Positions 265 to 34,484 of a stretch of DNA of 64,000 nt are shown piece by piece. This DNA is from a virus. The stretch lies in the UHGV virus genome UHGV-1374678; one strand, written 5' to 3'. How positions within the stretch are numbered: the first letter of the stretch is position 1; each line of letters begins with the position of its first letter. A program made the position numbers and the translations under genes. The notes under the pieces are model-generated. The model saw nothing but the letters and a program-made list of their open reading frames with translations, did no database searches and was not told the origin of the DNA.

Positions 265-269
265 AAGAC

Positions 270-786: not shown

Positions 787-798
787 TTAAGTGATTGG

Positions 799-1065
799 AT
801 GCTAATTTTATTGATTACATACGCTATGATCAGTCTTTGCTTGTCACTTTGTTGGCTCATTCTCCATGGAGGAGAATTCATTTCTTTTATCAAGAGTTGG
901 ACGAGTAATAAAAATTGGTTTGGCAAGTTATACATGACACCTATAATTATTTTCTGTCTTCCGGCAATTATTTTGACATTTTTATTTGAAATAATTGTAC
1001 TGATTGTAGCAGAAATTGCTTTACTCGGAATAAAGAAAGAATATAGGAATGATAAAAAAGGGTGA
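799..1065 (+). CDS. small membrane protein (WFG-motif family)
   Basis: Hydrophobic translation with two predicted TM segments and an NKNWFGKL motif. The same motif occurs in 1074..1238 and 2749..3006. Confidence 0.4.
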   Translation: MLILLITYAMISLCLSLCWLILHGGEFISFIKSWTSNKNWFGKLYMTPIIIFCLPAIILTFLFEIIVLIVAEIALLGIKKEYRNDKKG

Positions 1066-1073
1066 TGAAAACA

Positions 1074-1238
1074 ATGATTCAAACGAAAATTTTACAGGCG
1101 GTGCTGTATGCACTTACAACAATTTTTAGTGTAATATTCATGATTAGAACAAAAGAGAAGGAAAATAAATATATTTGGTTTGGCATGGCTTTATGTTGGA
1201 TCGGAGCATTTATTGGAAAGATTGGAGAAATAATCTAG
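1074..1238 (+). CDS. small membrane peptide (54 aa, WFG-motif family)
   Basis: ATG at 1074 preceded by GGGTGATGAAAACA. Hydrophobic 54-aa ORF containing YIWFGMAL. Not in the ORF track because it is under 60 aa. Confidence 0.35.
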   Translation: MIQTKILQAVLYALTTIFSVIFMIRTKEKENKYIWFGMALCWIGAFIGKIGEII

Positions 1239-1283
1239 ATTAAAGCAAGCAAATTAGCCAATTAGAAGAAAGTCACATTTCAA

Positions 1284-1688
1284 ATGAGAAAGGAGAATAA
1301 AATAATGGCAACATTGAAAAATTATTACGCAGTAGCAGAAACAGTACAGAGATACGGAGGTAGGTATTATTACGCAATTTACAATGATGGTAATACATAT
1401 ACAGTAGGAGATAAGGTGATTGTGTCTGGAGCTTGTGATGATGTTCTTGAGATTACTAATATTCTTACACCAGAAGAAATTTCAAGAAATATCACAGCCG
1501 AAGGAATCTGTAAAGTCGATACGTCAGCTTATGATGCCCGTGTTCAGAGACGTAAAAAAGCAGATAAGCTTAAGAAAGAAATGGACAAAATGATCAAGGC
1601 AATGGATGAATCTAAGAAATACGAAATGTATGCAGAAGAGAGCCCTGCTTTAGCGGAGAAGCTGAATGAATATAAGACACTTGTGTAA
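1284..1688 (+). CDS. hypothetical protein
   Basis: ORF with AAGGAGAATAA RBS/junction motif upstream. Confidence 0.5.
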   Translation: MRKENKIMATLKNYYAVAETVQRYGGRYYYAIYNDGNTYTVGDKVIVSGACDDVLEITNILTPEEISRNITAEGICKVDTSAYDARVQRRKKADKLKKEMDKMIKAMDESKKYEMYAEESPALAEKLNEYKTLV

Positions 1689-1702
1689 GGAGAATATTAT
1701 AT

Positions 1703-2647
1703 ATGAAGTATAAAGTTGGAGATAAAGTTAGAGTCAGAAGCGATTTGACAGAAGGTAAAGAATATGGTGGAGTTTTTGTTATTTCGGATATGTCTGAATT
1801 GCGTGGAAAAATAGTAACCATTGCACGAATATTATATGATGATTGTACGCCTTTAAAGTCGTGCTATACAATTAAAGAAATGGAATGTTGTTGGACAGAT
1901 GACATGTTTGAACCTGTGCCTTATGATGGCATAATGGATGCTATTAGATATAGTGAAGATATACAGAAAATGATCGATGATATGCATAAATTCTTTTTTC
2001 ATAGCGTAATTAAAGATTTGACAAATGAGATAAAAGGAGAGGGCAAAAATAAAATGAACGACAAGAAGACGAATAATAAGAAAAAGAAGATGACACAGAG
2101 AGAAAGACTTGAAATGAAACTTGAAGAGTGTAGAAATAAATCTATTGTACATTCAGTGGAAGTTGTCGTGCCAGACAAAGTTGTAAAGGTTGCAATTGAA
2201 AGATGGTATGAATTGGAAGAATATAAACTTGTATGTGATCCACAGGACACATTTAGTGTTGAAAGAGCTGTAATCCTTGCTTTAGTAAAAAACGATAATT
2301 CAGATCTTACGGCTGAAGGTATTGAGCATGAAGCTGATCAGTTTAAATTCTACAAGAGTAAGATGGAAGTTCTTAAAAATGCAATGAAAGTATATAAAGC
2401 ACAGCTTGCCATTAAAGAATATGATGAAAAAGAAAAAGTCGAGAGGGAAAGAATCCGAGAGAATAAGAAAAAAAATAAAATTGCTCAGAAGAAGAGAAGA
2501 GCTGAAAGACTTGCGGAAGAAAAACTGAAAGAAACAAAGGAAGCAGCGAAGATTTATGCTGAAGCACTGAAATCAGCTTTGTGTGGTTATGAAATTTCAG
2601 AAGATACGGTTGAGAACATGGCAAAAGATATGAATATAAGAGTGTAA
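1703..2647 (+). CDS. hypothetical Lys/Glu-rich coiled-coil protein
   Basis: 314-aa ORF with RBS AAGGAGAATATTATATATG. Followed by a hairpin terminator. Confidence 0.55.
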   Translation: MKYKVGDKVRVRSDLTEGKEYGGVFVISDMSELRGKIVTIARILYDDCTPLKSCYTIKEMECCWTDDMFEPVPYDGIMDAIRYSEDIQKMIDDMHKFFFHSVIKDLTNEIKGEGKNKMNDKKTNNKKKKMTQRERLEMKLEECRNKSIVHSVEVVVPDKVVKVAIERWYELEEYKLVCDPQDTFSVERAVILALVKNDNSDLTAEGIEHEADQFKFYKSKMEVLKNAMKVYKAQLAIKEYDEKEKVERERIRENKKKNKIAQKKRRAERLAEEKLKETKEAAKIYAEALKSALCGYEISEDTVENMAKDMNIRV

Positions 2648-2654
2648 GTGGTAG

Positions 2655-2704
2655 CAGGTGCGTAGAGAATAAGTAATATACAACTCTGCGCACCTGTGTA
2701 AAAA
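2655..2704 (+). terminator. rho-independent terminator-like hairpin
   Basis: CAGGTGCG...CGCACCTG stem of 8+ bp with a 25-nt loop, followed by an A/T-rich tail. Confidence 0.45.
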
Positions 2705-2748
2705 TGGATGTATTAATTATAGCATGTATTACAGCAGAAAGGAAGTAG

Positions 2749-3006
2749 GTGATTACTATAGAATTCGTTTATGTTTTGATTATTTTGGCATATATTTGTG
2801 TCATTATGATTAGCTTCGTGGACTTTATGAATTGTAATTTCACATACTTTAGTTATAAGGCAAATTATGAAAGATGGAATAAACTAAATTGGTTTGGCAT
2901 CGTATTTATAACTTCTGTGATTTGTATTTTGTTCTTTCCGTTGTCGATCGGATATGGTATTTGCAGATTTATTCGTTGGGTTTTCACGGTTGGAAGGAAA
3001 GATTAA
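2749..3006 (+). CDS. small membrane protein (WFG-motif family)
   Basis: Hydrophobic ORF with an NKLNWFGIVFIT motif. Confidence 0.4.
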   Translation: MITIEFVYVLIILAYICVIMISFVDFMNCNFTYFSYKANYERWNKLNWFGIVFITSVICILFFPLSIGYGICRFIRWVFTVGRKD

Positions 3007-3007
3007 T

Positions 3008-3221
3008 TATGAAAATCAAATTCTCAAATGGAAGTAGTTTGGAATCAATCGAATCAACAGATAGTAAAAGAAGTAAACGTGCAGAAAAGATTTTGTATTA
3101 CAAAAAGAATCCATATAAATTAATAAAATATTTATACGGAGAGAACTTACATTTATATCAAAAGTTATGGATAAAATTTATTATACTTGCAGAGAAATGG
3201 AGACAATTATGGAAAATGTAG
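3008..3221 (+). CDS. hypothetical protein
   Basis: Internal ATG at 3008 (MKIKFSNG) following the stop of the previous gene. The longer ORF from 2889 overlaps the upstream gene. Confidence 0.35.
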
Positions 3222-3469
3222 AAGAGAAGACTGTAGAAGTAAAAAGAAAAATTCATAAATTCTATTGCGATAAATGTGGAGAATATTTAGGTGAGAGTGA
3301 AGAGTTTGATGATGAATATTATGAGGAAATCGGATATGTTACTCAACGTGTTGTTGTAAATGGAAAACAATACATCTATAAAAGACATCTGTGTAGCAAA
3401 TGTAAAGAAAATTTCTATAAAGATCTAGGCAATGTTTTGGAAATTGTTGGTTTTGTAAATGTTGGATAA
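3167..3469 (+). CDS. zinc-ribbon protein
   Basis: Two CxxC pairs (CDKCGE ... CSKCKE). Confidence 0.45.
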   Translation: MDKIYYTCREMETIMENVEEKTVEVKRKIHKFYCDKCGEYLGESEEFDDEYYEEIGYVTQRVVVNGKQYIYKRHLCSKCKENFYKDLGNVLEIVGFVNVG

Positions 3470-3471
3470 TT

Positions 3472-3780
3472 ATGCAGATTATTAGTATGCCAAGATGTTC
3501 TGGAAAAACAATGCTTGCAATTAAGAGGACGAGAGATATGAAAAGAAGAGAAAGGATACAGTTGACCAAATGGGCAGATAAATTGTCTGATAAAGACTTG
3601 GAAGATGCATATTATGATGCAGTTTATGACTGTTTAGGAAGTGAAACAGAAGAAATGTATGAACTAGGTTATGATCCAATAGATATTGCAGAACAAGAAA
3701 AATGTGAAAAGTATCTTAGCGAAAAGGCTGATGTGTTGGAAGAACTATGTGAAAGACGAGGAATTAAGTTATGGGAATAA
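3472..3780 (+). CDS. hypothetical acidic protein
   Basis: ORF track only. Confidence 0.4.
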   Translation: MQIISMPRCSGKTMLAIKRTRDMKRRERIQLTKWADKLSDKDLEDAYYDAVYDCLGSETEEMYELGYDPIDIAEQEKCEKYLSEKADVLEELCERRGIKLWE

Positions 3781-3801
3781 AGAATAAAGGAGTATAGACC
3801 A

Positions 3802-4362
3802 ATGGGAACTAAAGATAATACTTATGCAAACACAGGAAAGAGATTATATTTTCTATCAGACGATGTAGATAATGAATCAATTGGACAACTTACATGGAAC
3901 ATATTGCATCAGCTTGCAGAAGATGATGAGAAAGATAAGAAAGAAAAGGATTATAAACGTGAACCAATTAAAATCTACATCAATTCGTATGGTGGAGTAG
4001 TTTATGACATGTGGGGATTGATTGACATTATTGTAAATAGCAAAACACCAATTTATACATATTGTACCGGTTATGCCATGAGTGCAGCTTTCAAGATTTT
4101 CTTAGCAGGGCATAAGCGATATTGTTACAAGCACTCCACATTCATGATTCATCAACCTGTTTGTTGGATTAGTGGAAAATATACAGATATTAAAGAAAAC
4201 ATGGCAGAACATGATCGAATGAATGAATATATTATCCAGTATATTCTTGATAGAACATATTTTAAAAAAGAAGAACTGGATAATATTTGGGAAAAGAAAC
4301 AAGACTTTTATATTAATTCAGAAGATGCTGAGAAATATGGAATTGTTAATGAAGTTTTGTAA
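3802..4362 (+). CDS. clpP: ClpP-family serine protease
   Basis: YINSYGGVVYDMWGLIDII ... TYCTGYAMSAAF ... FMIHQP aligns with the ClpP core (YINSPGG, GQAASMG catalytic Ser, MIHQP catalytic His). Confidence 0.8.
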   Translation: MGTKDNTYANTGKRLYFLSDDVDNESIGQLTWNILHQLAEDDEKDKKEKDYKREPIKIYINSYGGVVYDMWGLIDIIVNSKTPIYTYCTGYAMSAAFKIFLAGHKRYCYKHSTFMIHQPVCWISGKYTDIKENMAEHDRMNEYIIQYILDRTYFKKEELDNIWEKKQDFYINSEDAEKYGIVNEVL

Positions 4363-4380
4363 AACGAATGTGGTGATTAA

Positions 4381-5511
4381 ATGAGAGTATATAAAGATAA
4401 ACAATTTCTTGTCTTTGATTTTGAAGACGGAAGAAATGTTAAGTATGATTTTGCGACCAAGACAGCGATCGGAATCAAAGGAAAACCTGTAAAAGATTTG
4501 CGAAGTCAGTTAAGTGGAATTTCAATGAACCGAGTAATTGAAAATTGTGACGATAAGAAGTATGCAAAATTCTTGAATTTTGTAATGAGAGCAGAATCTT
4601 CATATCATGAAATTTGGAATATCGGAACTGTACTTGATAGAGTTCCATTTTATTCAAGATTTGAGCAATTATTTTCTGCTGGTATAGATGATATTGTTGA
4701 CGTAAGAGAACAAAACTTGAAAAGTTTTAAATATTCTATTGAAGACATTCCAAAATCACTTCTTAAAATATGTAGAAAATATTCTATAAAAATTTCCAAC
4801 GACACTATTAGATTTTATAAAGAAAACCCAAACGCATATTGTATTGCCTATAAGTTAGATTATTTAAGTTTGGATTATTACGACATCTATAAAATATGGA
4901 AAACATCAGAAAACATGTATGATGCAAACGCAAAATCATATTTTAACATCCTTGTAAATGAGTACGGATATAATGCAAAAGATTTATGGCTATACATAGA
5001 TAGAATAAAGACATTTGAAGCAATTGAAGATATGGCTTTTCTTATTCGTGAATTATGTGATTATGCGGACATGATGAGGCAGCTTAGTAATAAGTACGAC
5101 AAGTATCCAAGACATTTTCTTACAACTCATAAAATTGCATGTAGAAATTATGACAGAATGAAGAAAGAATTTTCAGAAGAGTTATTTAGAAAAAGAATTA
5201 AAAAAGAATATGAATGTTCATTTGGAGAATATGTATTTATTTATCCTAAGTCTACTCAAGATATCAAGGATGAGGCAGCCTGCCAAAGTAATTGTGTTAG
5301 TTCTTATATAGATAAGGTTATTGATGGATACTGTCATATATTATTCTTGAGAAAAAAGAACAGTCCAAAAGAAAGTCTTGTAACAATAGAGGTTAGAAAT
5401 GATCAGATTGTCCAGGCTAAAAGAAGATTCAACGATGATGTAACAGAAGAACAGAAAGAAGTAATTGATAAGTTCAATAAGAAATTTGGAAAGGAGATTA
5501 AGGCAGCATGA
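4381..5511 (+). CDS. hypothetical protein (376 aa)
   Basis: Long ORF with an RBS. No confident family assignment from sequence alone. Confidence 0.5.
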   Translation: MRVYKDKQFLVFDFEDGRNVKYDFATKTAIGIKGKPVKDLRSQLSGISMNRVIENCDDKKYAKFLNFVMRAESSYHEIWNIGTVLDRVPFYSRFEQLFSAGIDDIVDVREQNLKSFKYSIEDIPKSLLKICRKYSIKISNDTIRFYKENPNAYCIAYKLDYLSLDYYDIYKIWKTSENMYDANAKSYFNILVNEYGYNAKDLWLYIDRIKTFEAIEDMAFLIRELCDYADMMRQLSNKYDKYPRHFLTTHKIACRNYDRMKKEFSEELFRKRIKKEYECSFGEYVFIYPKSTQDIKDEAACQSNCVSSYIDKVIDGYCHILFLRKKNSPKESLVTIEVRNDQIVQAKRRFNDDVTEEQKEVIDKFNKKFGKEIKAA

Positions 5512-5963
5512 TTAAGGGTGATAAGATAAGACTTAAAGCAAAAATGGGTGTGTTTGATAACATCGGAGAAATCTGTGAAGTAATAGATATAAGTGATGGT
5601 GGAGTGATTTGTTTTAAATTTGGTAATGGAAGTCATCTTGGTTGTATGTCATTCGATGAATACGAGAAGTATTTTGAATTGGTTGAGGAAGAAAAAGAAC
5701 CAGTAAAAAGAGTTTGGAGTAAGTGGAAGCTTGGTTATATTACTTTTTATAACCAAACTGGAGAATGTATTGAAGAGGATATTTATTATAGAGAAAACAG
5801 AAAACGTGTGCAAGTAAAACTAAAAGATGGAAGTTTAAGAGCGAATGCATCTTGTTGTAAAGAAGACGAGTTCGATTTTTCCAAGGGAAGAGAATTAGCG
5901 GAAAAACGACTGATTATGAAATATCTTGCCAGAGAAGTAAAGGAATATGCAGATTCATTGTAG
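5508..5963 (+). CDS. hypothetical protein
   Basis: ORF whose start overlaps the upstream stop (ATGA). Confidence 0.45.
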   Translation: MIKGDKIRLKAKMGVFDNIGEICEVIDISDGGVICFKFGNGSHLGCMSFDEYEKYFELVEEEKEPVKRVWSKWKLGYITFYNQTGECIEEDIYYRENRKRVQVKLKDGSLRANASCCKEDEFDFSKGRELAEKRLIMKYLAREVKEYADSL

Positions 5964-5983
5964 AAGATAGGAGAATAAAATAA

Positions 5984-6445
5984 ATGATTATATTACTTAT
6001 TATAATTTCAATCATAGGATTTATTATAGCTTATGTAATTGATGAAGATTTTGCTGGTTTTTTCTCAGTATGTTTCTGTGTATTACTTGTCATTGGTATG
6101 TTTTTAGGGATTTCTGTAAGTAATGGAAAAACCATAGACGAAAAAATTGTAATGTACCAAGAAGAGAATAACAAAATAGAGAAACAAATCGACACATTGG
6201 TTTCTAATTATATGAACTATGAATCTGATACATATGAAAAAATAAAATCAGAAAGTTCTATTACATTAGTTTCTATGTATCCAGAACTGAAATCAGATAA
6301 ATTAGTAGAAGAACAAATTTCCGTATATGAAGAAAACAATAAAAAGATCAGAGAATTCAAGGAAGATAAGATCAACCTGAAAGTTAAGAAGTGGTGGTTG
6401 TATTTTGGAGGTCGAATGAAATCGAACTTTCATAATGGAGAATAA
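5984..6445 (+). CDS. membrane-anchored coiled-coil protein
   Basis: N-terminal TM segments followed by a coiled-coil region. GGAGAATAAAATAAATG junction motif. Confidence 0.45.
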   Translation: MIILLIIISIIGFIIAYVIDEDFAGFFSVCFCVLLVIGMFLGISVSNGKTIDEKIVMYQEENNKIEKQIDTLVSNYMNYESDTYEKIKSESSITLVSMYPELKSDKLVEEQISVYEENNKKIREFKEDKINLKVKKWWLYFGGRMKSNFHNGE

Positions 6446-6447
6446 CT

Positions 6448-6777
6448 ATGTGTAAGTATTGTGATGAAAATTCATACGAATGCGAAGTCTTTCGTGGAGA
6501 TAATGGCTATTACCTGGATGTAGAAACGTTGGAATGGGATAATTACTATGATGAAATTGTACATATCAGGTTGGATATAAACTATTGTCCGTACTGTGGA
6601 AGAAAGTTGGATGAAGAAGATGTAAAACCAATTATTCTGGATCAATCAAACGGAGATATCGAATATGAGTGTCCTATGTGTGGAATACAGGTTGTATCTA
6701 ATATTGGAACTAAAAGTAACTGTTGTGGCGAATGCGGTTGTAAATTTGATTGGAGTGAGATTGATGAGACCAATTGA
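6448..6777 (+). CDS. zinc-ribbon protein
   Basis: Multiple CxxC motifs (CPYCG, CPMCG, CCGECGC). Confidence 0.45.
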   Translation: MCKYCDENSYECEVFRGDNGYYLDVETLEWDNYYDEIVHIRLDINYCPYCGRKLDEEDVKPIILDQSNGDIEYECPMCGIQVVSNIGTKSNCCGECGCKFDWSEIDETN

Positions 6778-7051
6778 TGCAGATTTATTAATGGAAAATT
6801 TAGGTTTTGATGATACAGAAGAAGAAAGAGAAGAAAATGTCGGAGAAATCATCACATGGGAAGGTGTTGATAGTCTGCCGACAGCGTTTGACGTGGAGCA
6901 AGTTGTAAGAGAGCTTAAAGAATTAAAAATGCGTTACTATATGACAATAGCAAACACAGGTGATGCGGATAAAGATTGTGCTTATCTCAATACTGCAAAT
7001 GCTATTGATAAAGCTATTGAAATTGTTAAGAGAGGTGGAAGAGAATGTTAG
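6762..7051 (+). CDS. hypothetical protein
   Basis: Internal ATG at 6762 (MRPIDADLL) overlaps the upstream stop. Ends in RGGREC via the shared GGTGGAAGAGA RBS. Confidence 0.4.
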
Positions 7052-7533
7052 TTCCGGCAATTTTATACAAAGAGCAAATCCAAAAAGAATTTCAAAAATA
7101 TTACTACACAACAGATATGATGTACGAGACAGGCTGCTTAGACAATTGGAGTCCAAACATAGAAGAAAACCCAGATGAACAAACATACCAATATGCAATT
7201 ATAGGAAATGATAATAAGTTGATTGGCTTTCTTGCTTTCAGAATAGATTGGTATTGCTCACGTGTTTATAATTTTGGCTTGTTTTCATTCGACAGAGGAA
7301 ATGCATTGATTGGAAGAGAAGTCTTTAAAAAATTAGATAAACTTGTTAATAGATTTCATAGAGTGGAGTGGAGAGCTGTTAGCGGTAATCCTGCTTGCAA
7401 AAGTTACGACAGTTTTATAGAAAAATATGATGGAAATAAGCACGTTCTTAAAGATGCAATTAGAGATAGAGCTGGTAATTATCACGATGATATTATTTAT
7501 GAGATTGTGAAGCGAGGCGGAAGAGATGAATGA
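7045..7533 (+). CDS. hypothetical protein
   Basis: ORF track. Same GGCGGAAGAGATG junction at its 3' end. Confidence 0.45.
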   Translation: MLVPAILYKEQIQKEFQKYYYTTDMMYETGCLDNWSPNIEENPDEQTYQYAIIGNDNKLIGFLAFRIDWYCSRVYNFGLFSFDRGNALIGREVFKKLDKLVNRFHRVEWRAVSGNPACKSYDSFIEKYDGNKHVLKDAIRDRAGNYHDDIIYEIVKRGGRDE

Positions 7534-7747
7534 AAAAGAGTTATGTCTAATGTGCGAAAGTTACCAAGAAGACACAAAATGTGAACAACGTGATAACTGT
7601 AAGCTCATGGCAATACTACAAGAAAACATAGAACTAAAGAAAAAAGTAAGTCGATTAAAACATCAATTGGACGAATCGGAATTAAAACGATCATATATGA
7701 TAGATCCGAATGCAATTGGTGATAGACACGAAATGGGTTGCTGGTAG
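7526..7747 (+). CDS. hypothetical Cys-rich protein
   Basis: ORF track. Confidence 0.4.
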   Translation: MNEKELCLMCESYQEDTKCEQRDNCKLMAILQENIELKKKVSRLKHQLDESELKRSYMIDPNAIGDRHEMGCW

Positions 7748-7760
7748 AGGGGTGGAAGAG

Positions 7761-7910
7761 ATGAGGAATAAACTGGATGATGTGTTAAGCCGAATACAGT
7801 TATATTCATACTTGTTGCCAACAGTAAAAATTGGAAATGCGATCATGGATTTCAGAGAAAAGTATACACTTCTGGATTGTAAGAAAGAGAGATGTCGAAG
7901 AGATGATTGA
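7761..7910 (+). CDS. hypothetical small protein
   Basis: ATG at 7761 immediately after the GGGTGGAAGAG RBS. Confidence 0.3.
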   Translation: MRNKLDDVLSRIQLYSYLLPTVKIGNAIMDFREKYTLLDCKKERCRRDD

Positions 7911-8187
7911 AATTGTAAAAAACATTTTAATAGTGGTTGGGATGGTAACAATCGCTTGTGTAATTATATGTTTTGCAATTGAATTTAAAGAAAAATTCAA
8001 GAGTTGGAGAAAAAATGGCTGTAAGATTAAGTTCCTATGCAGGCATGAATATGATGTTGAATTTACAAGCAGTTTATTTGGCGAAATATCATTGAAATGC
8101 AGAAAATGCGGAAAGAAAAAAATAATCAAGAATTTGAGTAGTGAATTGGTAGATAAACTTTGGTGGGGTGGAAGAGATGAAGAATAA
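7904..8187 (+). CDS. membrane-anchored zinc-ribbon protein
   Basis: ATG at 7904 after GTCGAAGAGATG. TM segment followed by CxxC...CxxC. Confidence 0.4.
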
Positions 8188-8638
8188 AGAGAAGTACGCA
8201 AGTGAGATTGTTGAAATTGCTTGTAATGGTGATAGCATTGCAATAACAAGCGATGGTGGTAAGTTGGTGCAGTGTAATCATATTAGCTGTTGTGAATGCT
8301 TGTTTGAGAATAGTAAAGATTGCCATGAGAAAGTAAAAAAATGGGCAGAATCCGAATACATAGAAAAGCCAGTGATTTCTAAAAAAGATAAAGCTTTTTT
8401 GGAGTATATCAAAGAAGAGTTTAAGTATATTGCAAGGGATGGTAGAAATGAGAATTTGTTTGCGTGGAGTGCAAAGCCCGAAAGAGGACTTACCATAAAC
8501 GAATGGCTGGATACGGGAAGTGATGCGATAGGACTTTACGGATTTAACCTAGACCTCCCAATGGTTAAATGGTCAGACTCCGAACCGTGGCTTATCGAGG
8601 ACTTGAAGAAGTTGGAGGTAGTGGACAGTTATGAGTAA
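8177..8638 (+). CDS. hypothetical protein
   Basis: ATG at 8177 after GGGTGGAAGAGATG. Confidence 0.45.
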   Translation: MKNKEKYASEIVEIACNGDSIAITSDGGKLVQCNHISCCECLFENSKDCHEKVKKWAESEYIEKPVISKKDKAFLEYIKEEFKYIARDGRNENLFAWSAKPERGLTINEWLDTGSDAIGLYGFNLDLPMVKWSDSEPWLIEDLKKLEVVDSYE

Positions 8639-8909
8639 AATTCCAAAAGAAATAGTAGACAAAATTGAGCAAAGAAATAAACTCAACGAAGAAATAGAGG
8701 CATGGTGCAAAGAAAACCTTGATATGGATGGAATGTGCTCGGACTGTGCCGATATCACAGACCATCACACCGGCAAGGAGCAAGGAAATGATGAATGCAA
8801 AGAATGGTGCGAGCAGTGGACAGGATATTGTGAAGATGACTATTACGGTCATTATTACTGGGAAACAGAGTATCCAGAAAAGTATTTGCATATGGATTTT
8901 TGGGTTTAA
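8631..8909 (+). CDS. hypothetical Cys-rich protein
   Basis: ORF track. Confidence 0.4.
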   Translation: MSKIPKEIVDKIEQRNKLNEEIEAWCKENLDMDGMCSDCADITDHHTGKEQGNDECKEWCEQWTGYCEDDYYGHYYWETEYPEKYLHMDFWV

Positions 8910-8930
8910 AGGTGGAGGAATCATAGAAGC

Positions 8931-9434
8931 ATGAATAGAGAAATACTTTTTAGAGGGAAACGTGTAGATAATGGCAAGTGGATAGATGGATATTTGTTTG
9001 ACGATGGCTACCCAAAACCTAGGCACGTTTTTGTAGGTGGTTTGGTGATTAATGAATACAAAGGAACGGCTTGTGATGAATGGGATATTAATGCAATTGA
9101 TTTTGCGGATGTTAAACCGGATACGATTTGCCAGTACACAGGATTAACCGACAAGAACGGAAAGAAAATCTTTGAGGGAGATATATTAAGAGGATTTCAA
9201 TATCCATTCTGTCATGATGAAGAATACAACTATTACGCAGAGATTATTTTTGTGAATTGTTCTTTTATGACTTATACACACAAAAATCCATCATCTTGTG
9301 TTAGAGGAATATCTGATGGGAATACAGAATTGATGGAGTGTTGGGTAAGTGAGGATTGGGAAGTTATTGGCAACATCTATGACGATCCTGAACTGTTAGA
9401 AGATAAGGAGAATAGCAATGGCAAAGATATTTAA
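8931..9434 (+). CDS. YopX-family phage protein
   Basis: N-terminal ILFRGKRVDNGKWIDGY and CQYTGLTDKNGKKIFEGDIL match the YopX hallmark (QYTGLKDKNGKEIYEGDI). Confidence 0.6.
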   Translation: MNREILFRGKRVDNGKWIDGYLFDDGYPKPRHVFVGGLVINEYKGTACDEWDINAIDFADVKPDTICQYTGLTDKNGKKIFEGDILRGFQYPFCHDEEYNYYAEIIFVNCSFMTYTHKNPSSCVRGISDGNTELMECWVSEDWEVIGNIYDDPELLEDKENSNGKDI

Positions 9435-9597
9435 AGTAAGCGGATATTTTGTGGATACAAATGGTAATTACTCAACGGAAGCTATCTATAATTTGATTTT
9501 TAATGGATGGGCAGAGCTTGAACTACGGCATGGACATACAGAACTGGAAGAAATATCCGATAGCTAAGCAAGTCGCAAGAATCGAATCAATAAGTCA

Positions 9598-12871: not shown

Positions 12872-14210
12872 GGAATCCCATTAGCTTTAGCTGATAGATA
12901 AAGAGCTGTACAAAACAGCGAATATACAAATGAAAGTGAGGTGATAAGTAAATGTTAAAAGCTTACAAATATAGATTACATCCTAATAAACAACAGGAAA
13001 TTCAAATACAAAAAACTTTCGGATGTTGTAGGTTTGTTTACAATTATATGCTTAATTATAAACAGGAGTTGTATGAAACGAAGAAAGAATTTATGAGTAA
13101 GTTTGATTGTAATAATTATGTGAATCGTGTTCTTAAGAAAGAATATGAATGGTTAAAAAATGTAGACAAATTCGCTCTTACAAATGCAATTTATAATATG
13201 GATTCAGCTTATCAGAAATTTTTCAAAGAACATACTGGTTATCCAAGATTTAAAAGTAAAAAAGATAATAAAAAGTCTTATAAAACAAATAACAATGTAA
13301 ATAAGGGAATAGCAACTATTCGTATTGAAAAGAATAGATTAAGACTTCCTAAAATTGGAATGGTAAGAATTGTTTATTCAAGAGAAATAACAGAAAGGAT
13401 AAAATCTGCAACTATTTCACAAGATCCATCTGGAAAATATTTTGCATCAATATTATTTGAAGCAGAATACGAATATTTACCAAAGAGCAATAATTCAGTC
13501 GGTGTTGATTTAGGAATTAAGGATTTACTTATCACTTCGGATGGTGAGAAAATTAAAAACATTCTTACTACAAAGAAATATGAAAATAAATTAACAAAAG
13601 AGCAAAGAAAACTTGCTAAGAAACAAAGAGGTAGTGTCAACTATGGGAAACAGAGAATAAAAGTAGCTAAAATATATGAAAAAATTCGTAATATCAGACT
13701 ATATAATTTACATCAAATTTCTCACAAACTTATAATCGAAAACCAAGTGATAGTGAGTGAGAATTTAAATATAGAAAGTATGCGACAGAATCATAATCTT
13801 GCAAAATCTGTATCTGGTTGTAGTTGGTACGAATTAACTAGACAGTTATTTTATAAGGCTGAATGGTATGGAAGAGAATATATAAAAATAGATAGATTTT
13901 TTGCAAGTAGTCAGTTATGTAATTGTTGTGGTTATCAAAACAAAGAGGTTAAAGATTTATCTGTTAGAGAATGGATATGTCCGGAATGTGGAACTGTTCA
14001 TGATAGAGATGTAAACGCTGCGATTAATATTCTTAATGAAGGATTGAGATTGCTAGAAGTAGCTTAAATATAAAACATACGGCAATATCTGTCGGAATTT
14101 ACGCCTGTGGAGATAGTAGGTTACGAGGTTTATGAAGCAGGAAGGTTTATAAAAACCAGATAAAAACAATATTTCAAGTGGAGAATAAATAATATGTAGC
14201 ATATATAAAG
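12872..14210 (+). mobile_element. IS200/IS605-family (IS1341-like) insertion element, tnpB only, with an ωRNA expected at the 3' end
   Basis: Left-end block AATCCCATTAGCTTTAGCTGAT ... GAATATACAAATGAAAGTGAGGTGAT lies immediately upstream of tnpB. It is conserved with the second copy at 19701. No tnpA is present. The right boundary is approximate. Confidence 0.6.
12952..14067 (+). CDS. tnpB: TnpB (IS605 OrfB family, RuvC-like, RNA-guided nuclease family)
   Basis: N-terminal [15 protein letters not shown] is the OrfB hallmark. C-terminal zinc finger CNCCG...CPECG. RuvC-III-like [11 protein letters not shown]. Confidence 0.85.
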
Positions 14211-14222
14211 GGAGGTAGTTTT

Positions 14223-15080
14223 ATGGATAGAAGTGATCTCGCAGAAAGAATGAAAGGCTATGAAAAAAGGAATAGATATTATCTTCAGCGAAGGATGCCA
14301 GTAATTTTGAGGCTAGACATGAGAGCTGGACATAGCTTCACAAAAGGATTTGAAAGACCGTTTGATGAAGTTTTTATTAAAGCAATACAAGAAACGGCAA
14401 AATATTTATGCGAAAATGTTCAAAATTGTAAGTTATCTTATCAACAAAGTGACGAAATTACATTATTACTTGTTGATTATGAAAAAATAAATACAGATTG
14501 TTTCTTTGAATATAGAGTAGATAAACTTTGTAGTATTGCAGCAAGTATGGCTACGATGAAATTTAATCAAGTTTTTAAAGAATTATCTTATAGAGAGTCA
14601 GAAAATTTGGAAATTATTTGTAGAAAAAATCCATATTTAGAAAACAGAGATTGTTTAACTAAAATTCCTAATGTACATACCAATTCAGCAGATAAAGGTG
14701 CAATGTTCGATTGCAGATGTTTCAATATTCCAAAGGAAGAAGTAACTAATAGCATTTATTGGCGACAACTTGACGCTACACGAAACTCTATTCAGATGGT
14801 AGGACAAGCTAATTTTTCGCACAAAGAATTGCAGAACAAGTCTTGCAACGATATTCAGGATATGCTTATGACTCAGAAAGGTATTAATTGGAATGATTTG
14901 CCGCTATATCAAAAACGTGGATCTTGTTGTATTAGAAATCATATGATTTCACTACCATATGGCGATTACCTGCTAGATGAAACCGCAGGTGAAAACGAAT
15001 GGATTATTGATAAAGATATTCCAATCTTCAAAGGTGAAGGTAGAAAATATATTGATAATCTTGTTTTCGTAGGAGAATAA
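14223..15080 (+). CDS. Thg1-like protein (tRNA-His guanylyltransferase family 3'-5' nucleotidyltransferase)
   Basis: [24 protein letters not shown] aligns with Thg1 [36 protein letters not shown] aligns with AYGQSDEYSFVF. The catalytic Asp residues (LD.., SDE) are conserved. Confidence 0.75.
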   Translation: [285 protein letters not shown]

Positions 15081-15085
15081 ATGTA

Positions 15086-15493
15086 ATGGATATTTTAAGG
15101 CGAGAAATTAAAAAGCAAATCGAATATTGCATAAAATTTGACAGATACAAAGCAGGATTTTTTGTTTCAGATGTGTCAAAGATTAACAAGATAAAAGAAA
15201 TCTTAGACGGAGTAAATAAAATAGTTGGGCAAATGATGCATGTTGTCAAATTAAAAGAGAATGAGTTGTATGTGGAGTTTTGGAATGGTAGTAGTATGAA
15301 AGTATTTGTACCTTCTGATAATTGTCGAGGATATAAGATCAATGGTTGTCTTATAGATGAAAATATAGCACAAGATGTAAAAGATTGTATTATATATCCA
15401 CGGATTATGCAGAGATATGTTGAAGTTGATGGCGTTCTTAAATTTGAAGATAGACTCGAAACAAATAAACGTATCGTGGAAGTAGAAATATAG
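15086..15493 (+). CDS. hypothetical protein
   Basis: ORF with GGAGAATAAATGTAATG junction. Confidence 0.45.
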   Translation: MDILRREIKKQIEYCIKFDRYKAGFFVSDVSKINKIKEILDGVNKIVGQMMHVVKLKENELYVEFWNGSSMKVFVPSDNCRGYKINGCLIDENIAQDVKDCIIYPRIMQRYVEVDGVLKFEDRLETNKRIVEVEI

Positions 15494-19143: not shown

Positions 19144-19687
19144 TTTATATGTCTACTTAATTCGTTCAAGAAACAAAGACAACAAGGATGTTCCTAATTT
19201 CAAAGAACGAGCAAAGACTATCTTAGAATACAAAGAAAATGAAGAAAAAGTATTTGATGAATTTTATAAATTTGCAGCAGATGGAGTTCCTGGCGAACAG
19301 ACAAGATTGTATCGGTCTGTAAATTCTAGGAATGAAGAAAAGATAAGAGAAGAACTTATTATTAGATTGCTTAGAAATAAACCAAGTATGACAAAGCTGA
19401 ATCGTATATTGGCTTCAGTTACGCAGCAGGTGGAAAATCGTGATGAGGGTAAATGGTTATTTGATTTTGATGTGGATGATGAGATTATCGCAGATGATTT
19501 TATTGATGACATTTTTATCCAAACAGATATGGATTATCCAATAGAAAAAATTAAACGTTATAAAACTCCGCATGGTTATGCAATTGTAGTTCCACATGGA
19601 TTTGACACTAGAAAACTCATGGAGAAGTGGAAAGATTACGATATCACATTAAAGAAAGATGGATTGTTATTTTTGGATATGATTTAA
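19127..19687 (+). CDS. hypothetical protein
   Basis: ORF track. Confidence 0.45.
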   Translation: MKIMSDLYVYLIRSRNKDNKDVPNFKERAKTILEYKENEEKVFDEFYKFAADGVPGEQTRLYRSVNSRNEEKIREELIIRLLRNKPSMTKLNRILASVTQQVENRDEGKWLFDFDVDDEIIADDFIDDIFIQTDMDYPIEKIKRYKTPHGYAIVVPHGFDTRKLMEKWKDYDITLKKDGLLFLDMI

Positions 19688-19700
19688 AGGGTTTTGTCAG

Positions 19701-20995
19701 AAATTCCATTAACTTTAGCTGATGGGATGAATGACAGAGAATAACTGTATATGAGTAATAATTAGAAATCTAAAAAACAGAGAATATACAAATGAAAGGA
19801 AGTGATTGTAGATGTTAGTAGCATATAAATATAGATTATATCCAAACAAAGAACAGCAAGCATACTTTGCGAAGTGTTTTGGATGTGTACGATTCATCTA
19901 CAATCGTATGCTTTCAGATAAGATTGATTATTATAAAGAAACAAAACAGAAATTAAACAATACACCAGCTCAATATAAGAAAGAATTTGAATGGTTAAAA
20001 GAGGTTGACTCTCTTGCATTGGCAAATGCACAGATGAATCTACAGGCAGCTTACAATAATTTTTTCAAAAGACCAGAAGTGGGCTTTCCTAAATTTAAAA
20101 GTAAGAAAAGTCATAAATTTTCTTATACAACTAATAATCAAGGTGGAAATATTTATGTATCTGATAGGTATATAAAACTTCCTAAAATTGGTTTGGTTAG
20201 AGTAAAGAAACATAGAGATTTTGATGGATTAATTAAGTCTGTTACTGTTTCTCAAAACCCTTCTGGTAAATATTATGTCTCTGTTTTGGTTAGCCAAGAA
20301 GACAAAGAAAAACTACCTATTAACAATAACGAAATAGGAATTGATCTTGGTATTAAAGAATTTGCAATTACTTCTGATGGAGAAATGATTGAGAATCCAA
20401 AATATCTTAGAAAGTCTGAAAAGAAATTAAGAAAATTACAAAAGAATTTATCTCGTTGCAAAAAAGGAAGTAAAAACAGAGAAAAATGTAGAATTGAAGT
20501 TGCAAAACAACATGAAAAGATTACAAATCAAAGAAAAGATTTTTTACATAAATTAGCTACGAGAATTATTCGTGAAAATCAAACAATAGTTCTTGAAGAT
20601 TTAAAAGTAAAAAATATGATGAGTAACCATAAATTAGCAAAATCAATTGCAGATGTATCTTGGAGTGAATTTGTAAGGCAATTGGAATATAAAGCTGATT
20701 GGTATGGACGAGAAATTATAAAAATTGATACTTGGTATCCATCTAGCCAGATATGTTCTAATTGTGGTCACAGAGATGGAAAGAAAGCATTGTCTATAAG
20801 AGAATGGACATGTCCTAATTGCGGAACGCATCATGAAAGAGATATTAATGCAGCAATAAATATTCTCAATGAAGGTTTGAGAATGAGAACGGCAGGAACT
20901 GTCGAGATAGCCTAAGTAAACTTATCTCATTAGAGATATTGATTAGGAAGCCCAACGAGCTTTAGCTCGTGGGTAGTTCACAGATAATATTCCAA
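19701..20995 (+). mobile_element. second IS200/IS605-family (IS1341-like) tnpB-only element
   Basis: Left end AAATTCCATTAACTTTAGCTGAT ... GAATATACAAATGAAAGGAAGTGAT is homologous to the copy at 12872. The downstream region contains GAGCTTTAGCTCGTGGG, which echoes the left-end CTTTAGCT motif. The right boundary is approximate. Confidence 0.6.
19812..20915 (+). CDS. tnpB: TnpB (IS605 OrfB family)
   Basis: [17 protein letters not shown]-terminus. CSNCGH...CPNCGT zinc finger. [12 protein letters not shown] RuvC-III motif. About 45-50% identical to the first copy by eye. Confidence 0.85.
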
Positions 20996-22276: not shown

Positions 22277-22404
22277 TTTGAAATTTTTCTTTCATTCAGT
22301 AGTCATGAATGCTGCGTGAAAGAAGAAAATAATCAACTACATATGGAGGAAAAGTAAAGTAATTCTAGATAATATGCTTACGTAAGCCTTGAAAATAAGG
22401 CAAT

Positions 22405-23334
22405 TTGAGCAATACAAATGAAAGAAAAACTTCTACAGATGGACTTAGAGTGTTAAGTCTCTGTGGTGGTGTAGAAACTGGATTATACGCATTACAGCAA
22501 TTGGATATTCCGGTGAAAGAGTATCATACATATGAGATTCTGCCTGAAGCTATTGCAGTTTCTCAGTACCATTTTCCGTTTGTGATACATCATGGTGATT
22601 TATATGAAGCGGATTTTAATCAATTCAAAGGATTTGACTTGTTATTAGCAGGAACTTGTTGCCAAAGTTTGAGTAAAGTCAGAATAGAAAATAAACAAGT
22701 CAACAATGGTTTAGATGGCAAATCAGGTATTTTCTTTAAAGCCATCGAATGTCTTAAGGTAATTCAGCCAAAATATTTCATGTTTGAAAATGTAATACCG
22801 AGTAGAGAAGAGGATCTAAATACAATGACAGAATGCATTGGTGTTGACCCCTTGCTTATTGACTCTGCAATTTTTAGCGCACAGTCGAGAGAAAGATATT
22901 ATTGGACAAACATTCCATTGGGTGAATTACCGGAAGAATCTCCATTAGTTTTAAAAGACGTGATGGAGAATAATGTAAATGAGAAATATTTCTATAAAAA
23001 AGATTTTGAAATCATCGACATGAATAAACGTGTTTGTGCAGAGTTAAAGGTTAATACGATGGAGATGGGTAGACGTATCTATAATCCTGAGTTTAAGTGT
23101 TGTACATTAACGTGTGTTGGTGGTGGATACAACGAAAAGAAAGTTATGGATCATGACAGACCACGAAAATTAACACCTGTTGAATATGAAAGATTACAGG
23201 GACTACCGGATAGATATACGGATGTATTAATAAATGGAAGAAAAATAAGTGATACGAAACGATATTCTATGATGGGTAATGGTTGGAATGAACCGACAGT
23301 AGAGTGGATATTAAGTGGATTGAAAAAAGTGTAA
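22405..23334 (+). CDS. DNA (cytosine-5)-methyltransferase, small orphan type
   Basis: Motif I LSLCGGVETG. Motif IV GTCCQSLS, an unusual CCQ in place of PCQ. ENV (FMFENV). QSRERYYW (motif VIII). RKLTPVEYERLQGLPD (IX). MMGNGWNEPTV (X). The start codon is uncertain (TTG at 22405). Confidence 0.8.
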   Translation: MSNTNERKTSTDGLRVLSLCGGVETGLYALQQLDIPVKEYHTYEILPEAIAVSQYHFPFVIHHGDLYEADFNQFKGFDLLLAGTCCQSLSKVRIENKQVNNGLDGKSGIFFKAIECLKVIQPKYFMFENVIPSREEDLNTMTECIGVDPLLIDSAIFSAQSRERYYWTNIPLGELPEESPLVLKDVMENNVNEKYFYKKDFEIIDMNKRVCAELKVNTMEMGRRIYNPEFKCCTLTCVGGGYNEKKVMDHDRPRKLTPVEYERLQGLPDRYTDVLINGRKISDTKRYSMMGNGWNEPTVEWILSGLKKV

Positions 23335-26421: not shown

Positions 26422-27729
26422 ATGTATTGTGCTTATGTTACAACATTAAAAGGATTAAGAAAACATAGTAATGCAGATAGATTACAGTGTGTTGAAGTTT
26501 TTGGACAAAATGTAATTGTTGATTTGAGCTATAAAGATGGACAAAAGGTAGTTTTCTTTCCATCTGACGGACAATTATCAGAAGAGTATGCAAAAGATAA
26601 TAATCTCGTAAGAATGAAAGATGAAAATGGTAATAATATTGGCGGATATATGGACGCTGAAAAAAGAAATGTTACTGCGATTAGACTCAGAGGTGAAAAA
26701 TCAGAGGGTTTAGTATTGCCTATAGAATCACTTTCTAAGTATGTGGATGTTACAAAATTAAAAGATGGAGATCAGATTACCGTCATTGGTGGTCATGAAA
26801 TCTGTAGAAAATATATTCCAAAAAGTAGTAGAAGAAGCAACAACTCAAGAAAAAGTAGTGATAAGAAGAAAAAAGATAACTCGATTTCTTATCCATTCTT
26901 CGAAGAACACAAAGATACTGCACAGCTTGCGTATAATATGTCTGCGTTTAAACCCGGTGATACTGTATATATTACCCGTAAGCTTCACGGCACGTCAGCT
27001 CGTACCATGAAGACAATTAAAGTAACAAAGAAGAATAATGTATTTAGAAGATTTTTACATATGAAACCTAAATACGAAAAAGAAGTTTCTGTAGTTACAG
27101 GAAGTAGACGAGTTGTATTAAAAGATATGAATAGTACAGATGGTTATTATTCAGATAATACATTCAGAAAGAAATATCACGATTTGTTAAAAGACAAACT
27201 TCCGGAAGGATTTGAAATTTTCTATGAGATTGTTGGTTATGTAAACGAGACAACACCAATCATGGGAACTGTGTCAAACAGCAAAGTAAAAGATAAAGAA
27301 TTCAAGAAGAAATTTGGAGATACAACTGTATTTTCTTATGGCTGCAAACCAGGTGAAAACGAAATGTATGTGTATAGAATGACTGCAACAACAGCAGATG
27401 GTACAGTTGTGGAAATTCCTTGGGAGAATATAAAAGTATGGTGTGACAAACTTGGTGTAAAACATGTACCAGAATTGGAAAAATTTATCTATACAACGCC
27501 TGAAGACTTAAAAGAAAGAGTAAATAAGTATCTTGATGGTATGCCAGTTGATGAGATTGGTAAAACACATATTGCAGAAGGTGTAGTTGTTCGTATTGAC
27601 AATAGAGATTCATTTACTGCATATAAAGATAAAGTGTTCGAATTCAAGGTATGTGAAGGAATTATTAAAGACAATTCAGACGCACCAGACATGGAAGAAG
27701 CAGAAGAATTGCTTAAGGAGATTGTATAA
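26422..27729 (+). CDS. RNA ligase (Rnl2-like nucleotidyltransferase) with N-terminal tRNA-binding OB-fold (Myf/Trbp111-type) domain
   Basis: N-terminus KHSNADRLQCVEVFG...GQKVVFFPSDGQL...RGEKSEGLV matches the tRNA-binding consensus (HPDADKLYVCKVDVG...GQKVVVALPGAVL...RGVESEGML). Ligase motif I TRKLHGTSA (KxHGxN). Motif III-like FEIFYEIVGY. Motif IV AEGVVVR. Confidence 0.75.
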   Translation: MYCAYVTTLKGLRKHSNADRLQCVEVFGQNVIVDLSYKDGQKVVFFPSDGQLSEEYAKDNNLVRMKDENGNNIGGYMDAEKRNVTAIRLRGEKSEGLVLPIESLSKYVDVTKLKDGDQITVIGGHEICRKYIPKSSRRSNNSRKSSDKKKKDNSISYPFFEEHKDTAQLAYNMSAFKPGDTVYITRKLHGTSARTMKTIKVTKKNNVFRRFLHMKPKYEKEVSVVTGSRRVVLKDMNSTDGYYSDNTFRKKYHDLLKDKLPEGFEIFYEIVGYVNETTPIMGTVSNSKVKDKEFKKKFGDTTVFSYGCKPGENEMYVYRMTATTADGTVVEIPWENIKVWCDKLGVKHVPELEKFIYTTPEDLKERVNKYLDGMPVDEIGKTHIAEGVVVRIDNRDSFTAYKDKVFEFKVCEGIIKDNSDAPDMEEAEELLKEIV

Positions 27730-28619
27730 TGAATAAGCCAACATTATGGGTTATGGTCGGTTTGTCTGGAAGTGGTAAATCAAGTGTAGCAAAAGAAATC
27801 GCAGAGAATAATTCTAACACAATTATCGTATCATTAGACAATATTTGTGAAGAATTGACTGGTAAAGTAGAAGATCAATCTAAAAATGAAGAAGTATCTA
27901 AAGTATTTCACAAAAGAATTCGTGAGACATTGGAGAATAATACTAATGTAGTTGCTGATGCGACAAATATTACAATGAGGTCGAGACGAGCAATTATTGA
28001 AAATGTCAAAAGTATTGAATGTCATAAAATCGTTTATCTGATTCCAAAACCATTTAGACAATGCAAAATTGATAACCTGAATAGACAACATCCTGTGCCT
28101 GAAGAAGTATTAAATGGGCAGCTTAGAAAATTCCAGATTCCGTTCATGGAAGATGGTTTTGATGAAGGAATTATTTATTACATACATAATAAAAATAGAT
28201 TGGATGCGTTAAAAATGTTTGATAATATGGAAGGTTTTAATCAACAAAATCCGCATCATACTTCAACACTTGCAGACCATTGCAAGAATGCGCATGAATT
28301 GTTTTCAAGACATGGTTATCCGTCAAAATATAATTTGGCAGCGTTATTTCATGATTATGGGAAATTGTACTGTAAAGAATTAGATGATGATGGAATTGCA
28401 CGTTTTTACGGACATGATTCAATTGGTTCATATATGATTTTAGAAAATTTTGCAGAAATATTTTATAAAGATGTTGCCGATATGTGTTTTTTAATTAACT
28501 ATCACATGATGCCTTTTGATTGGACAACAGAAAAATCTAAGGAACGTTGGAAGAAAAGGTTTGGAGAATATAAATATCAGATGCTTTTGGATTTTCATGA
28601 ATGCGATAAAGCGAGGTGA
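27729..28619 (+). CDS. polynucleotide 5'-kinase (T4 Pnk-like) fused to HD-domain phosphohydrolase (Cca-type 2',3'-cyclic phosphodiesterase/phosphatase-like)
   Basis: Walker A GLSGSGKSS. VVADATNITMRSRRAI aligns with T4 Pnk VIISDTNLNPERRLAW. C-terminal HxxH...HDYGK...GHD has the HD-superfamily signature, like the HDIGK of the bacterial CCA-enzyme HD domain. Confidence 0.75.
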   Translation: MNKPTLWVMVGLSGSGKSSVAKEIAENNSNTIIVSLDNICEELTGKVEDQSKNEEVSKVFHKRIRETLENNTNVVADATNITMRSRRAIIENVKSIECHKIVYLIPKPFRQCKIDNLNRQHPVPEEVLNGQLRKFQIPFMEDGFDEGIIYYIHNKNRLDALKMFDNMEGFNQQNPHHTSTLADHCKNAHELFSRHGYPSKYNLAALFHDYGKLYCKELDDDGIARFYGHDSIGSYMILENFAEIFYKDVADMCFLINYHMMPFDWTTEKSKERWKKRFGEYKYQMLLDFHECDKAR

Positions 28620-34481: not shown

Positions 34482-34484
34482 CGA

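Follow-up and report, generated by a model that had tools for sequence, protein, structure and literature searches.

A bacterial-type Thg1-like protein encoded by a large gut phage and its possible role in the repair of tRNA 5' ends

Proteins of the Thg1 superfamily are known to act on the 5' ends of tRNA in more than one way. Eukaryotic Thg1 adds a non-templated G-1 onto tRNA-His through recognition of the anticodon, whereas Thg1-like proteins (TLPs) carry out templated repair on many tRNAs (PMC3701042, PMC4820378). The active-site carboxylates are D29, D76 and E77 in the human enzyme hTHG1 and D30, D75 and E76 in BtTLP, the TLP of Bacillus thuringiensis (PMC3701042). In MaTLP, the TLP of Methanosarcina acetivorans, R136 and N137 contact the tRNA 5' end and C72, and a flexible beta-hairpin, which binds at the elbow of the tRNA, serves to 'measure' acceptor-stem length (PMC4820378). 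Phages also carry such genes: a Thg1-type gene was already flagged in the genome paper of phage Bc431v3 in 2013 (PMC3601020), and Iyer et al. in 2021 listed Thg1 among the RNA-repair enzymes of jumbo phages that restore 5' nucleotides (PMC7824862). The present study concerns a gene of this kind at positions 14223 to 15080, on the + strand, of a 64,000-nucleotide stretch of the virus genome UHGV-1374678; this whole stretch is referred to as the window.

The gene starts with ATG and codes for 285 amino acids, its coordinates including the stop codon. A Shine-Dalgarno-like GGGAGG is present at 14210 to 14215 (+), 7 nt 5' of the ATG. It was found that the product matches the Pfam family Thg1 (PF04446) with E=2.3e-27 and 95.9 bits against a cut-off of 29.2, covering positions 2 to 130 of the 130 in the profile, the family PHROG 4717 'tRNA-His guanylyltransferase' with E=1.1e-83, and BtTLP in the Protein Data Bank (PDB 4kgk) with E=1.2e-60. 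An earlier sequence-only reading of this DNA, which had proposed a match to Thg1/TLP on the strength of two motifs, is borne out by these results and by the structural comparison below, and both motifs were located, at residues 29-39 and 74-83. Of the two Pfam searches that it suggested, the one with Thg1 was significant and the one with Thg1C stayed below threshold (20.2 bits, cut-off 26.3). The C-terminal (fingers) domain, residues 160-283, aligns to residues 126-239 of BtTLP with E=8e-27, and an NCBIfam search with the protein gave no match.

AlphaFold2, supplied with an alignment of 115 diverse representatives, produced a model with a predicted local distance difference test score (pLDDT) of 94.4 and a predicted template modelling score (pTM) of 0.91; it supersedes an earlier model built from 30 close homologues, which was discarded with a pLDDT of 54. 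The palm-like polymerase fold of the solved Thg1/TLP structures is recovered in this model. Foldseek returned 32 PDB matches at E<=0.001, every one of them a Thg1/TLP chain, and the two BtTLP entries 4kgm and 4kgk were at the top with template modelling (TM) scores, by target length, of 0.93-0.94. That the reading frame encodes a Thg1-family protein is therefore virtually certain. In comparison with six viral homologues, the ratio of nonsynonymous to synonymous substitution (omega) of the conserved core was 0.07-0.11, about 0.08, which means strong purifying selection. Since the reading frame is intact and its core is constrained to this degree, the gene is an intact one under selection and not a relic.

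All of the catalytic and nucleotide-binding residues that could be mapped are kept in the phage protein, namely E14, R30, D32, H37, S76, D77, E78, K101, R165, R187 and N188. Motif 1 (residues 29-39, window 14307 to 14339, +) holds R30, D32 and H37; where DGxxFH is canonical, this clade has DMRAGH. Motif 2 (residues 74-83, window 14442 to 14471, +) holds S76, which serves in activation, followed by the two carboxylates D77 and E78. The roles assigned in BtTLP and in yeast Thg1 (ScThg1) map to E14, R30 and R165 for the incoming nucleoside triphosphate and to D32 and D77 as metal ligands (PMC3701042). The sequence-only reading had named loss of the catalytic carboxylates as an outcome that would speak against it; D32, D77 and E78 are retained, are invariant among the 30 close homologues, and among the 115 more distant relatives are found in 111, 112 and 115, respectively. 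S76 is kept in 113 of these relatives. ScThg1 R27, K96, R133 and S75 have their equivalents in R30, K101, R165 and S76, and the activation-step lysine, K44 of ScThg1, is replaced by R45, a conservative change common to 47/115 relatives. The equivalents of MaTLP R136 and N137 are present as R187 (98/115 relatives) and N188 (111/115). Two letters of DMRAGH are less usual, with M33 in 11 and G36 in 13 of the 115.

By sequence comparison the phage protein is a bacterial-type TLP and not a eukaryotic tRNA-His-specific Thg1. It scores E=1e-60 with BtTLP and 1e-11 with MaTLP, against 9e-8 with ScThg1, 2e-4 with the Candida enzyme CaThg1 and 8e-4 with hTHG1. In the Foldseek alignments it is 34-39% identical to BtTLP and only 16-20% identical to Thg1. 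It shares with the eukaryotic enzymes of yeast, Candida and human (5XOX, 3WBZ, 3OTB) the superfamily, the catalytic carboxylates and the two-metal 3'-5' chemistry, but the similarity is weak (E=1e-4 to 1e-8), and the HINNLYN segment of eukaryotic Thg1 is not conserved, EEVTNSI standing at the aligned position.

BtTLP (PDB 4KGK/4KGM) is thus the closest known system, in sequence and in structure. Both proteins have the two-domain architecture of palm and fingers, and BtTLP E12, R28, D30, D75, E76 and R131 correspond to E14, R30, D32, D77, E78 and R165 of the phage protein. The same chemistry would be expected by analogy, that is, activation with ATP or GTP followed by templated 3'-5' addition. 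The two differ in that BtTLP has a short loop where the phage TLP carries an insertion of about 40 residues, 116-158, predicted in the model to form a protruding helical arm. DGxxFH is DMRAGH, the activation-step lysine is Arg45 and the R-S-R-W at the base of the hairpin is E-N-E-W in the phage protein. Moreover, the gene for BtTLP is chromosomal whereas the present one is phage-borne.

MaTLP, solved with tRNA (PDB 5AXM/5AXN), has the same fold (TM score to target 0.82-0.85), the R136/N137 pair described above and a flexible, poorly conserved beta-hairpin at the place where the phage protein has a low-confidence segment of hairpin length; its identity to the phage TLP is only about 24%. MaTLP R215, the conserved arginine that binds the elbow phosphates, is apparently a glutamate in the phage clade, an equivalence that comes from alignment position and not from superposition.

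Nearer in habitat are the annotated phage 'tRNA-His guanylyltransferases' of PHROG 4717, to which the protein belongs by family (E=1e-83). Examples are found in Bacillus phages Bc431v3, Bcp1 and G, Staphylococcus phage PMBT8 and Fusobacterium phages Fnu1 and FNU3, typically among the early or nucleotide-metabolism genes of large, tRNA-carrying phages. They are mostly of about 238-250 amino acids without the long insertion, and all are less than 60% identical to this TLP. A tblastn search recovered relatives in 161 GenBank phage records with 39-51% identity over nearly the full length, mostly labelled tRNA-His guanylyltransferase already, from phages of hosts that include Bacillus, Prevotella, Caulobacter, Mycobacterium, Fusobacterium and Staphylococcus. 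At least 591 viral contigs of IMG/VR contain relatives, and 5214 clusters in a library of representatives clustered at 50% identity match the TLP at E<=1e-3. An identical protein is already present in NCBI under the same name, and the gut-phage clade to which it belongs is known from metagenomes only. The identification is thus a correct annotation of a known kind, as phage TLPs are common and already annotated.

Two segments of the protein vary like cassettes among its close relatives. Cassette 1 is the insertion relative to BtTLP (residues 116-158, window 14568 to 14696, +), seen in the alignment as a gap to 4kgk between query residues 120 and 160. In the model it prolongs the helix 99-135 and adds a return helix, 142-158, so that a helical arm protrudes with pLDDT 85-95. 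The 104 homologues with an identity of 74% or more have thirteen mutually unrelated types of this cassette, of 33-46 residues. It was considered whether the insertion is unique to this phage, and this was ruled out, as the same segment measures 6-61 residues, with a median of 33, among the 115 distant relatives. Cassette 2 (residues 240-259, window 14940 to 14999, +) follows QKRGSCC in a region where the protein was aligned to MaTLP up to about residue 194. It is a segment of hairpin length with three types among the same 104 homologues, the model is at its least confident there (pLDDT 59), and its position is that of the flexible beta-hairpin of MaTLP. The hairpin base reads R-x-(K/R)-W in 60/115 relatives and E257-N-E259-W260 here, and so in this clade.

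The variation has the character of exchange. The N-terminal half exists in two versions among the close homologues, DMRAGH and the canonical DGKAFH, and these versions and the cassettes are found in various combinations. DNA identity of the homologues to the window gene is mostly 80-95% and falls to 11-40% only at nucleotides 361-450 and 721-765 of the gene. As the collapse is confined to two segments, it indicates replaced cassettes and not fast-evolving codons. That the gut-phage TLP clade is a variant with remodelled recognition of its substrate or of a partner is rather unlikely in our estimate; the idea is put forward because the predicted helical arm and the putative elbow hairpin are swapped as unrelated cassettes while the rest is 80-95% identical and under purifying selection, and because the hairpin-base arginine is a glutamate and DGxxFH is DMRAGH. 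This pattern would be consistent with an arms race in which the phage enzyme evades, for instance, inhibition or sensing by the host, and also with retargeting to different damaged RNAs. Alternatively, it may reflect relaxed constraint and recombination in exposed elements.

What could such an enzyme be doing for a phage? Our favoured reading, which by analogy with the characterised TLPs we consider somewhat better than an even bet, is that of an intact phage TLP refilling 5'-truncated acceptor stems of tRNA as part of an RNA-repair kit. By homology the protein would work like BtTLP and MaTLP, probably as a tetramer. Its substrate would be a tRNA that lacks one or a few nucleotides at the 5' end of its acceptor stem. 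A 5'-monophosphate end would be activated with ATP or GTP and a 5'-triphosphate end would be used directly, after which templated 3'-5' addition, each nucleotide being specified by its Watson-Crick partner on the 3' strand, would restore the stem to full length. The TLP would then be one item of a kit for RNA repair and protection of translation, encoded in the early/replication region together with an RNA ligase, a kinase-HD enzyme and phage tRNAs, and these items would jointly preserve a usable pool of tRNA while infection proceeds. The data show the family, the fold, the conservation of the mapped catalytic and nucleotide-binding residues, the purifying selection and the phage setting; that the protein is enzymatically active, acts on tRNA and serves in counter-defence is what we infer. 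Templated 3'-5' activity is quite probable by analogy, and for a counter-defence role in tRNA repair the chances appear about even. Repair of 5' ends as counter-defence, proposed earlier for jumbo phages and raised for this gene by the sequence-only reading, would by analogy be the most reasonable reading of the function.

The other members of the putative kit lie downstream. The RNA ligase (26422 to 27729, +) has an N-terminal OB-fold of the PHA02142 type and an RNA_ligase nucleotidyltransferase domain (Pfam PF09414, E=4.7e-11, and PF21189; PHROG 968, E=3e-68). The next gene (27729 to 28619, +) codes for an end-healing enzyme in which a P-loop kinase resembling polynucleotide kinase is joined to an HD phosphohydrolase domain, with matches to Pfam AAA_33, KTI12 and HD and to PHROG 505. 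This kinase-HD protein also matches Pnkp1 (4xrp) and, with E=2e-9, the 171-residue chains of 4mde and 4gp7, which we take to be the kinase domain of Clostridium thermocellum Pnkp. The pair occupies 26422-28619, about 11.3 kb downstream of the TLP gene, in agreement with the earlier remark that the two are separated. In a set of 80 viral loci with TLPs, examined within 10 kb on either side of the TLP and counted without a control set, tRNA genes were present in 22, a Pnk-like gene in 16 and a homologous RNA ligase in 9. These counts fit a loose association of TLPs with translation-repair functions.

The tRNA genes of the window form a cluster at 33693 to 34797 (+), where ARAGORN predicted Ile(UAU) at 33693-33766, Gln(UUG) at 34332-34405, Leu(UAA) at 34485-34567 and a tRNA-like RNA at 34727-34797. 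All four have complete 7-bp acceptor stems, with G-U wobbles only, and none of them encodes CCA; genes with such stems therefore need no 5' editing. The sequence-only reading had offered maturation of phage tRNAs as a second role, with the tRNA-Leu or the degenerate tRNA as molecules that might require 5' nucleotide addition. This found no support, since full acceptor stems are encoded in each of the four genes, those two included, and no tRNA-His is among them. Rfam tRNA matches were obtained only for the Leu gene (59.9 bits) and for the odd tRNA (42 bits).

Several features of the cluster are recorded here for their own sake. The Ile(UAU) and Gln(UUG) genes have no Rfam tRNA match even at E<=1 and are conserved in related contigs. 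The cluster as a whole is conserved in these contigs, except that one of them has Met(CAU) in place of Ile(UAU). The tRNA-like RNA at 34727-34797 has normal acceptor, D and T arms, but its anticodon arm, with a 3-bp stem and an 8-nt loop, falls about 3 nt short of the usual length, and ARAGORN gave the anticodon as '(gc)'; its counterparts lie at 7640-7710 of contig L093 and 8101-8171 of contig L095. In related contigs the D-stem C-G becomes U-A, A49.C65 becomes A-U and G3.U70 becomes A-U, and the anticodon arm is unchanged. As the odd anticodon arm stays the same, this RNA appears to be maintained. Just upstream of the cluster, at 33291-33374 (+), is a full-length Rfam RAGATH-27 RNA (85.1 bits, gathering threshold 76.1, E=2e-11).

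A number of points weigh against the refilling of 5'-truncated tRNAs. A literature search found no defence that trims tRNA 5' ends; the tRNA-targeting defences it did find cut the anticodon arm (loops or stems), the D-loop, the 3' strand of the acceptor or the CCA tail. Full-text searching turned up no biochemical, genetic or other experimental study of a phage TLP. The tRNA genes that the phage carries in the window have, as described, complete acceptor stems. Canonical features of substrate contact are altered, with DMRAGH for DGxxFH and glutamate for the hairpin-base arginine, likely the equivalent of MaTLP R215, and therefore tRNA binding may differ from that of MaTLP. The TLP gene and the ligase/Pnk pair do not share an operon, two related contigs (L090, L096) lack the ligase, and the kinase-HD gene is split into two reading frames in three (L092, L093, L096). 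Apart from these points, a PADLOC scan matched neither the TLP nor the other submitted proteins to a defence system.

An enzyme dedicated to tRNA-His, which would add or restore G-1 opposite C73 on tRNA-His of the host or the phage for charging by histidyl-tRNA synthetase (HisRS), is the best surviving of the alternatives, and we consider it unlikely. Addition of G-1 to a tRNA-His that lacks it is within the capacity of bacterial and archaeal TLPs, and MaTLP has a second, anticodon-dependent mode of binding (PMC4820378). The database family bears the name 'tRNA-His guanylyltransferase', and a tRNA-His(GUG) gene is situated about 5.7 kb upstream of the TLP in 3/80 viral loci. In those three loci, however, G-1 is encoded in the genome opposite C73, which is the usual bacterial arrangement, and therefore no addition of G-1 is needed there. 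Bacterial RNase P leaves an encoded G-1 in place. Further, no tRNA-His was found in the window, which is 64 kb of a genome of about 200 kb, or in the tRNA clusters of eight related contigs, and the eukaryotic HINNLYN segment is, as noted, not conserved. The three tRNA-His(GUG) genes, on IMG/VR contigs L053 (4242-4315), L059 (3843-3917) and L075 (4267-4341), share consecutive U.U mismatches at the acceptor pairs 4:69 and 5:68 and differ in the anticodon and T stems.

It is quite improbable that the substrate is something other than tRNA. The enzyme would in that case extend the 5' ends of phage transcripts or small RNAs or activate them in a cap-like manner (App-/Gpp-RNA), or would synthesise a nucleotide product in the manner of other palm-domain enzymes, and the variable helical arm and hairpin would recognise a different partner. 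The changes specific to the clade are indeed located at elements of substrate contact, the hairpin-base arginine having become glutamate and the hairpin and arm being swapped, and TLP chemistry yields activated A-pp-RNA intermediates (PMC8131947). Mentions of Thg1 also occur in papers about minimal CRISPR polymerases. On the other hand the residues that contact the tRNA 5' end and C72 in MaTLP are conserved as R187 and N188, and the protein has the same fold as, and an overall identity of about 39-46% to, a TLP biochemically proven in tRNA repair. Nothing in the data, the PADLOC search included, points positively to another substrate.

The carrier is a large low-GC gut phage of about 190-240 kb. 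The G+C (GC) content of the window is about 32%, and the real-looking open reading frames of 100 or more amino acids are all on the + strand. A replication block encodes a DnaB-like helicase, a primase, a RecJ-like exonuclease, a DNA polymerase, an NAD-dependent ligase and NrdD, and the window also encodes two C5 methyltransferases, a sigma factor and an HNH protein. The identical TLP recurs in separate assemblies, on dozens of contigs whose length reaches 240 kb; one of these contigs is a named viral operational taxonomic unit (vOTU), one is in a metagenome-assembled genome (MAG) labelled Coprobacillus, and homologues bear 'Caudoviricetes' names. The replication module, the vOTU and IMG/VR contigs and these names agree with the earlier assertion that the gene is phage-encoded. 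Megablast of the locus against GenBank phages found no near-identical genome; this phage is known only from metagenomes.

The sequence-only reading had also placed the gene beside a tnpB element, and this is the case. A TnpB element of the IS605 OrfB / Cas12f-like kind extends over 12952 to 14163 (+), made up of the gene at 12952-14067 and a right end of about 95 nt, and its product matches Pfam HTH_OrfB_IS605, OrfB_IS605 and Cas12f1-like_TNB. The boundary of the element, at about 14160-14163, is 60 nt upstream of the TLP start codon. Two contigs, L004 and L005, have the same TLP (99.8% DNA identity) and no TnpB, and their identity to the window resumes at about 14160-14164. As homology resumes 60 nt before the start, the ribosome-binding site and immediate upstream sequence of the TLP gene are untouched by TnpB, and the GGGAGG is unchanged whether a contig has the upstream TnpB or not. 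An Rfam scan around the TLP gene gave no match to a TnpB guide-RNA family, and a scan for promoters and terminators in the same region showed promoter-like sites to be no commoner than in shuffled sequence.

Further TnpB elements are present in this lineage. A second one at 19683-20981 (gene 19812-20915) is absent from some near-identical contigs, and a third site, at the 34822/34972 junction just after the odd tRNA, holds TnpB in contigs L089, L093 and L095 and is empty in the window. From presence and absence at three sites it appears that TnpB elements have been recently gained or lost. The window from 1 to 9571 has no detectable DNA similarity to contigs L001-L006, which are otherwise 96-99% identical to it; these contigs carry an adenylosuccinate-synthetase-like gene of which the window retains the last 279 bp only. 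The divergence upstream of about 9572 points to a mosaic content of the early region.

With this setting in view, the last alternative, that the gene is a passenger without function or in decay, or is bacterial and was binned with phage DNA in error, to which the adjoining mobile TnpB elements in a mosaic region and the occurrence of some homologues on contigs of 0.5-1.3 Mb, necessarily bacterial chromosomes and perhaps within prophages, would lend some colour, is essentially refuted by the selection and conservation data: the reading frame and all catalytic residues are intact, omega is low, the identical protein recurs across separate assemblies with relatives in the many IMG/VR contigs, and the window has a complete phage-type replication module with its genes on one strand.

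Directly downstream of the TLP gene, a reading frame of 135 amino acids (15086-15493) gave no informative family match; it was not counted as a partner of the TLP, since it adjoins the TLP in few related loci only. Further away, a 120-bp segment at 22297-22416 lies between the 17-nt inverted repeats GAAATTTTTCTTTCATT and AATGAAAGAAAAACTTC (window 22280-22433). The first C5 DNA methyltransferase gene, whose start is either 22405 or about 22450, comes immediately downstream. Three contigs of the same phage lineage, L001, L002 and L006, have the segment as its exact reverse complement (99% identity), and L003 has it in the orientation of the window. The arrangement looks like a DNA-inversion (phase-variation) switch for the phage methyltransferase. 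The gene at 31778-32212 (+), of 144 amino acids, has counterparts in related contigs with a weak precomputed Pfam match to Tad2-like proteins (PF11195, the anti-Thoeris sponge family); some relatives have a second Tad2-like gene near this counterpart, and PADLOC gave no match. A Band_7/prohibitin-like protein is encoded at 29981-30841 (+), 15 kb from the TLP (PHROG 200; Pfam Band_7 on the counterpart in related contigs). In Fusobacterium phage FNU3 (L007, 7389-8198) a 'putative prohibitin' is encoded three genes downstream of the TLP, which is probably a coincidence.

A repair role for phage Thg1 is already in print, and identification of one more gene adds little by itself. Nor is the question of its function more testable with this gene than with the TLPs of cultivable Bacillus, Staphylococcus and Fusobacterium phages. 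The one feature that possibly deserves a closer look is that two surface elements vary like cassettes in the gut-phage clade, and this swapping of the predicted helical arm and the putative elbow hairpin may be so far unreported. For the family as a whole, identifying the damage that phage TLPs repair could bring to light a kind of host attack, so far undiscovered, that is directed at the 5' ends of tRNA, or a role of reverse polymerases outside tRNA.

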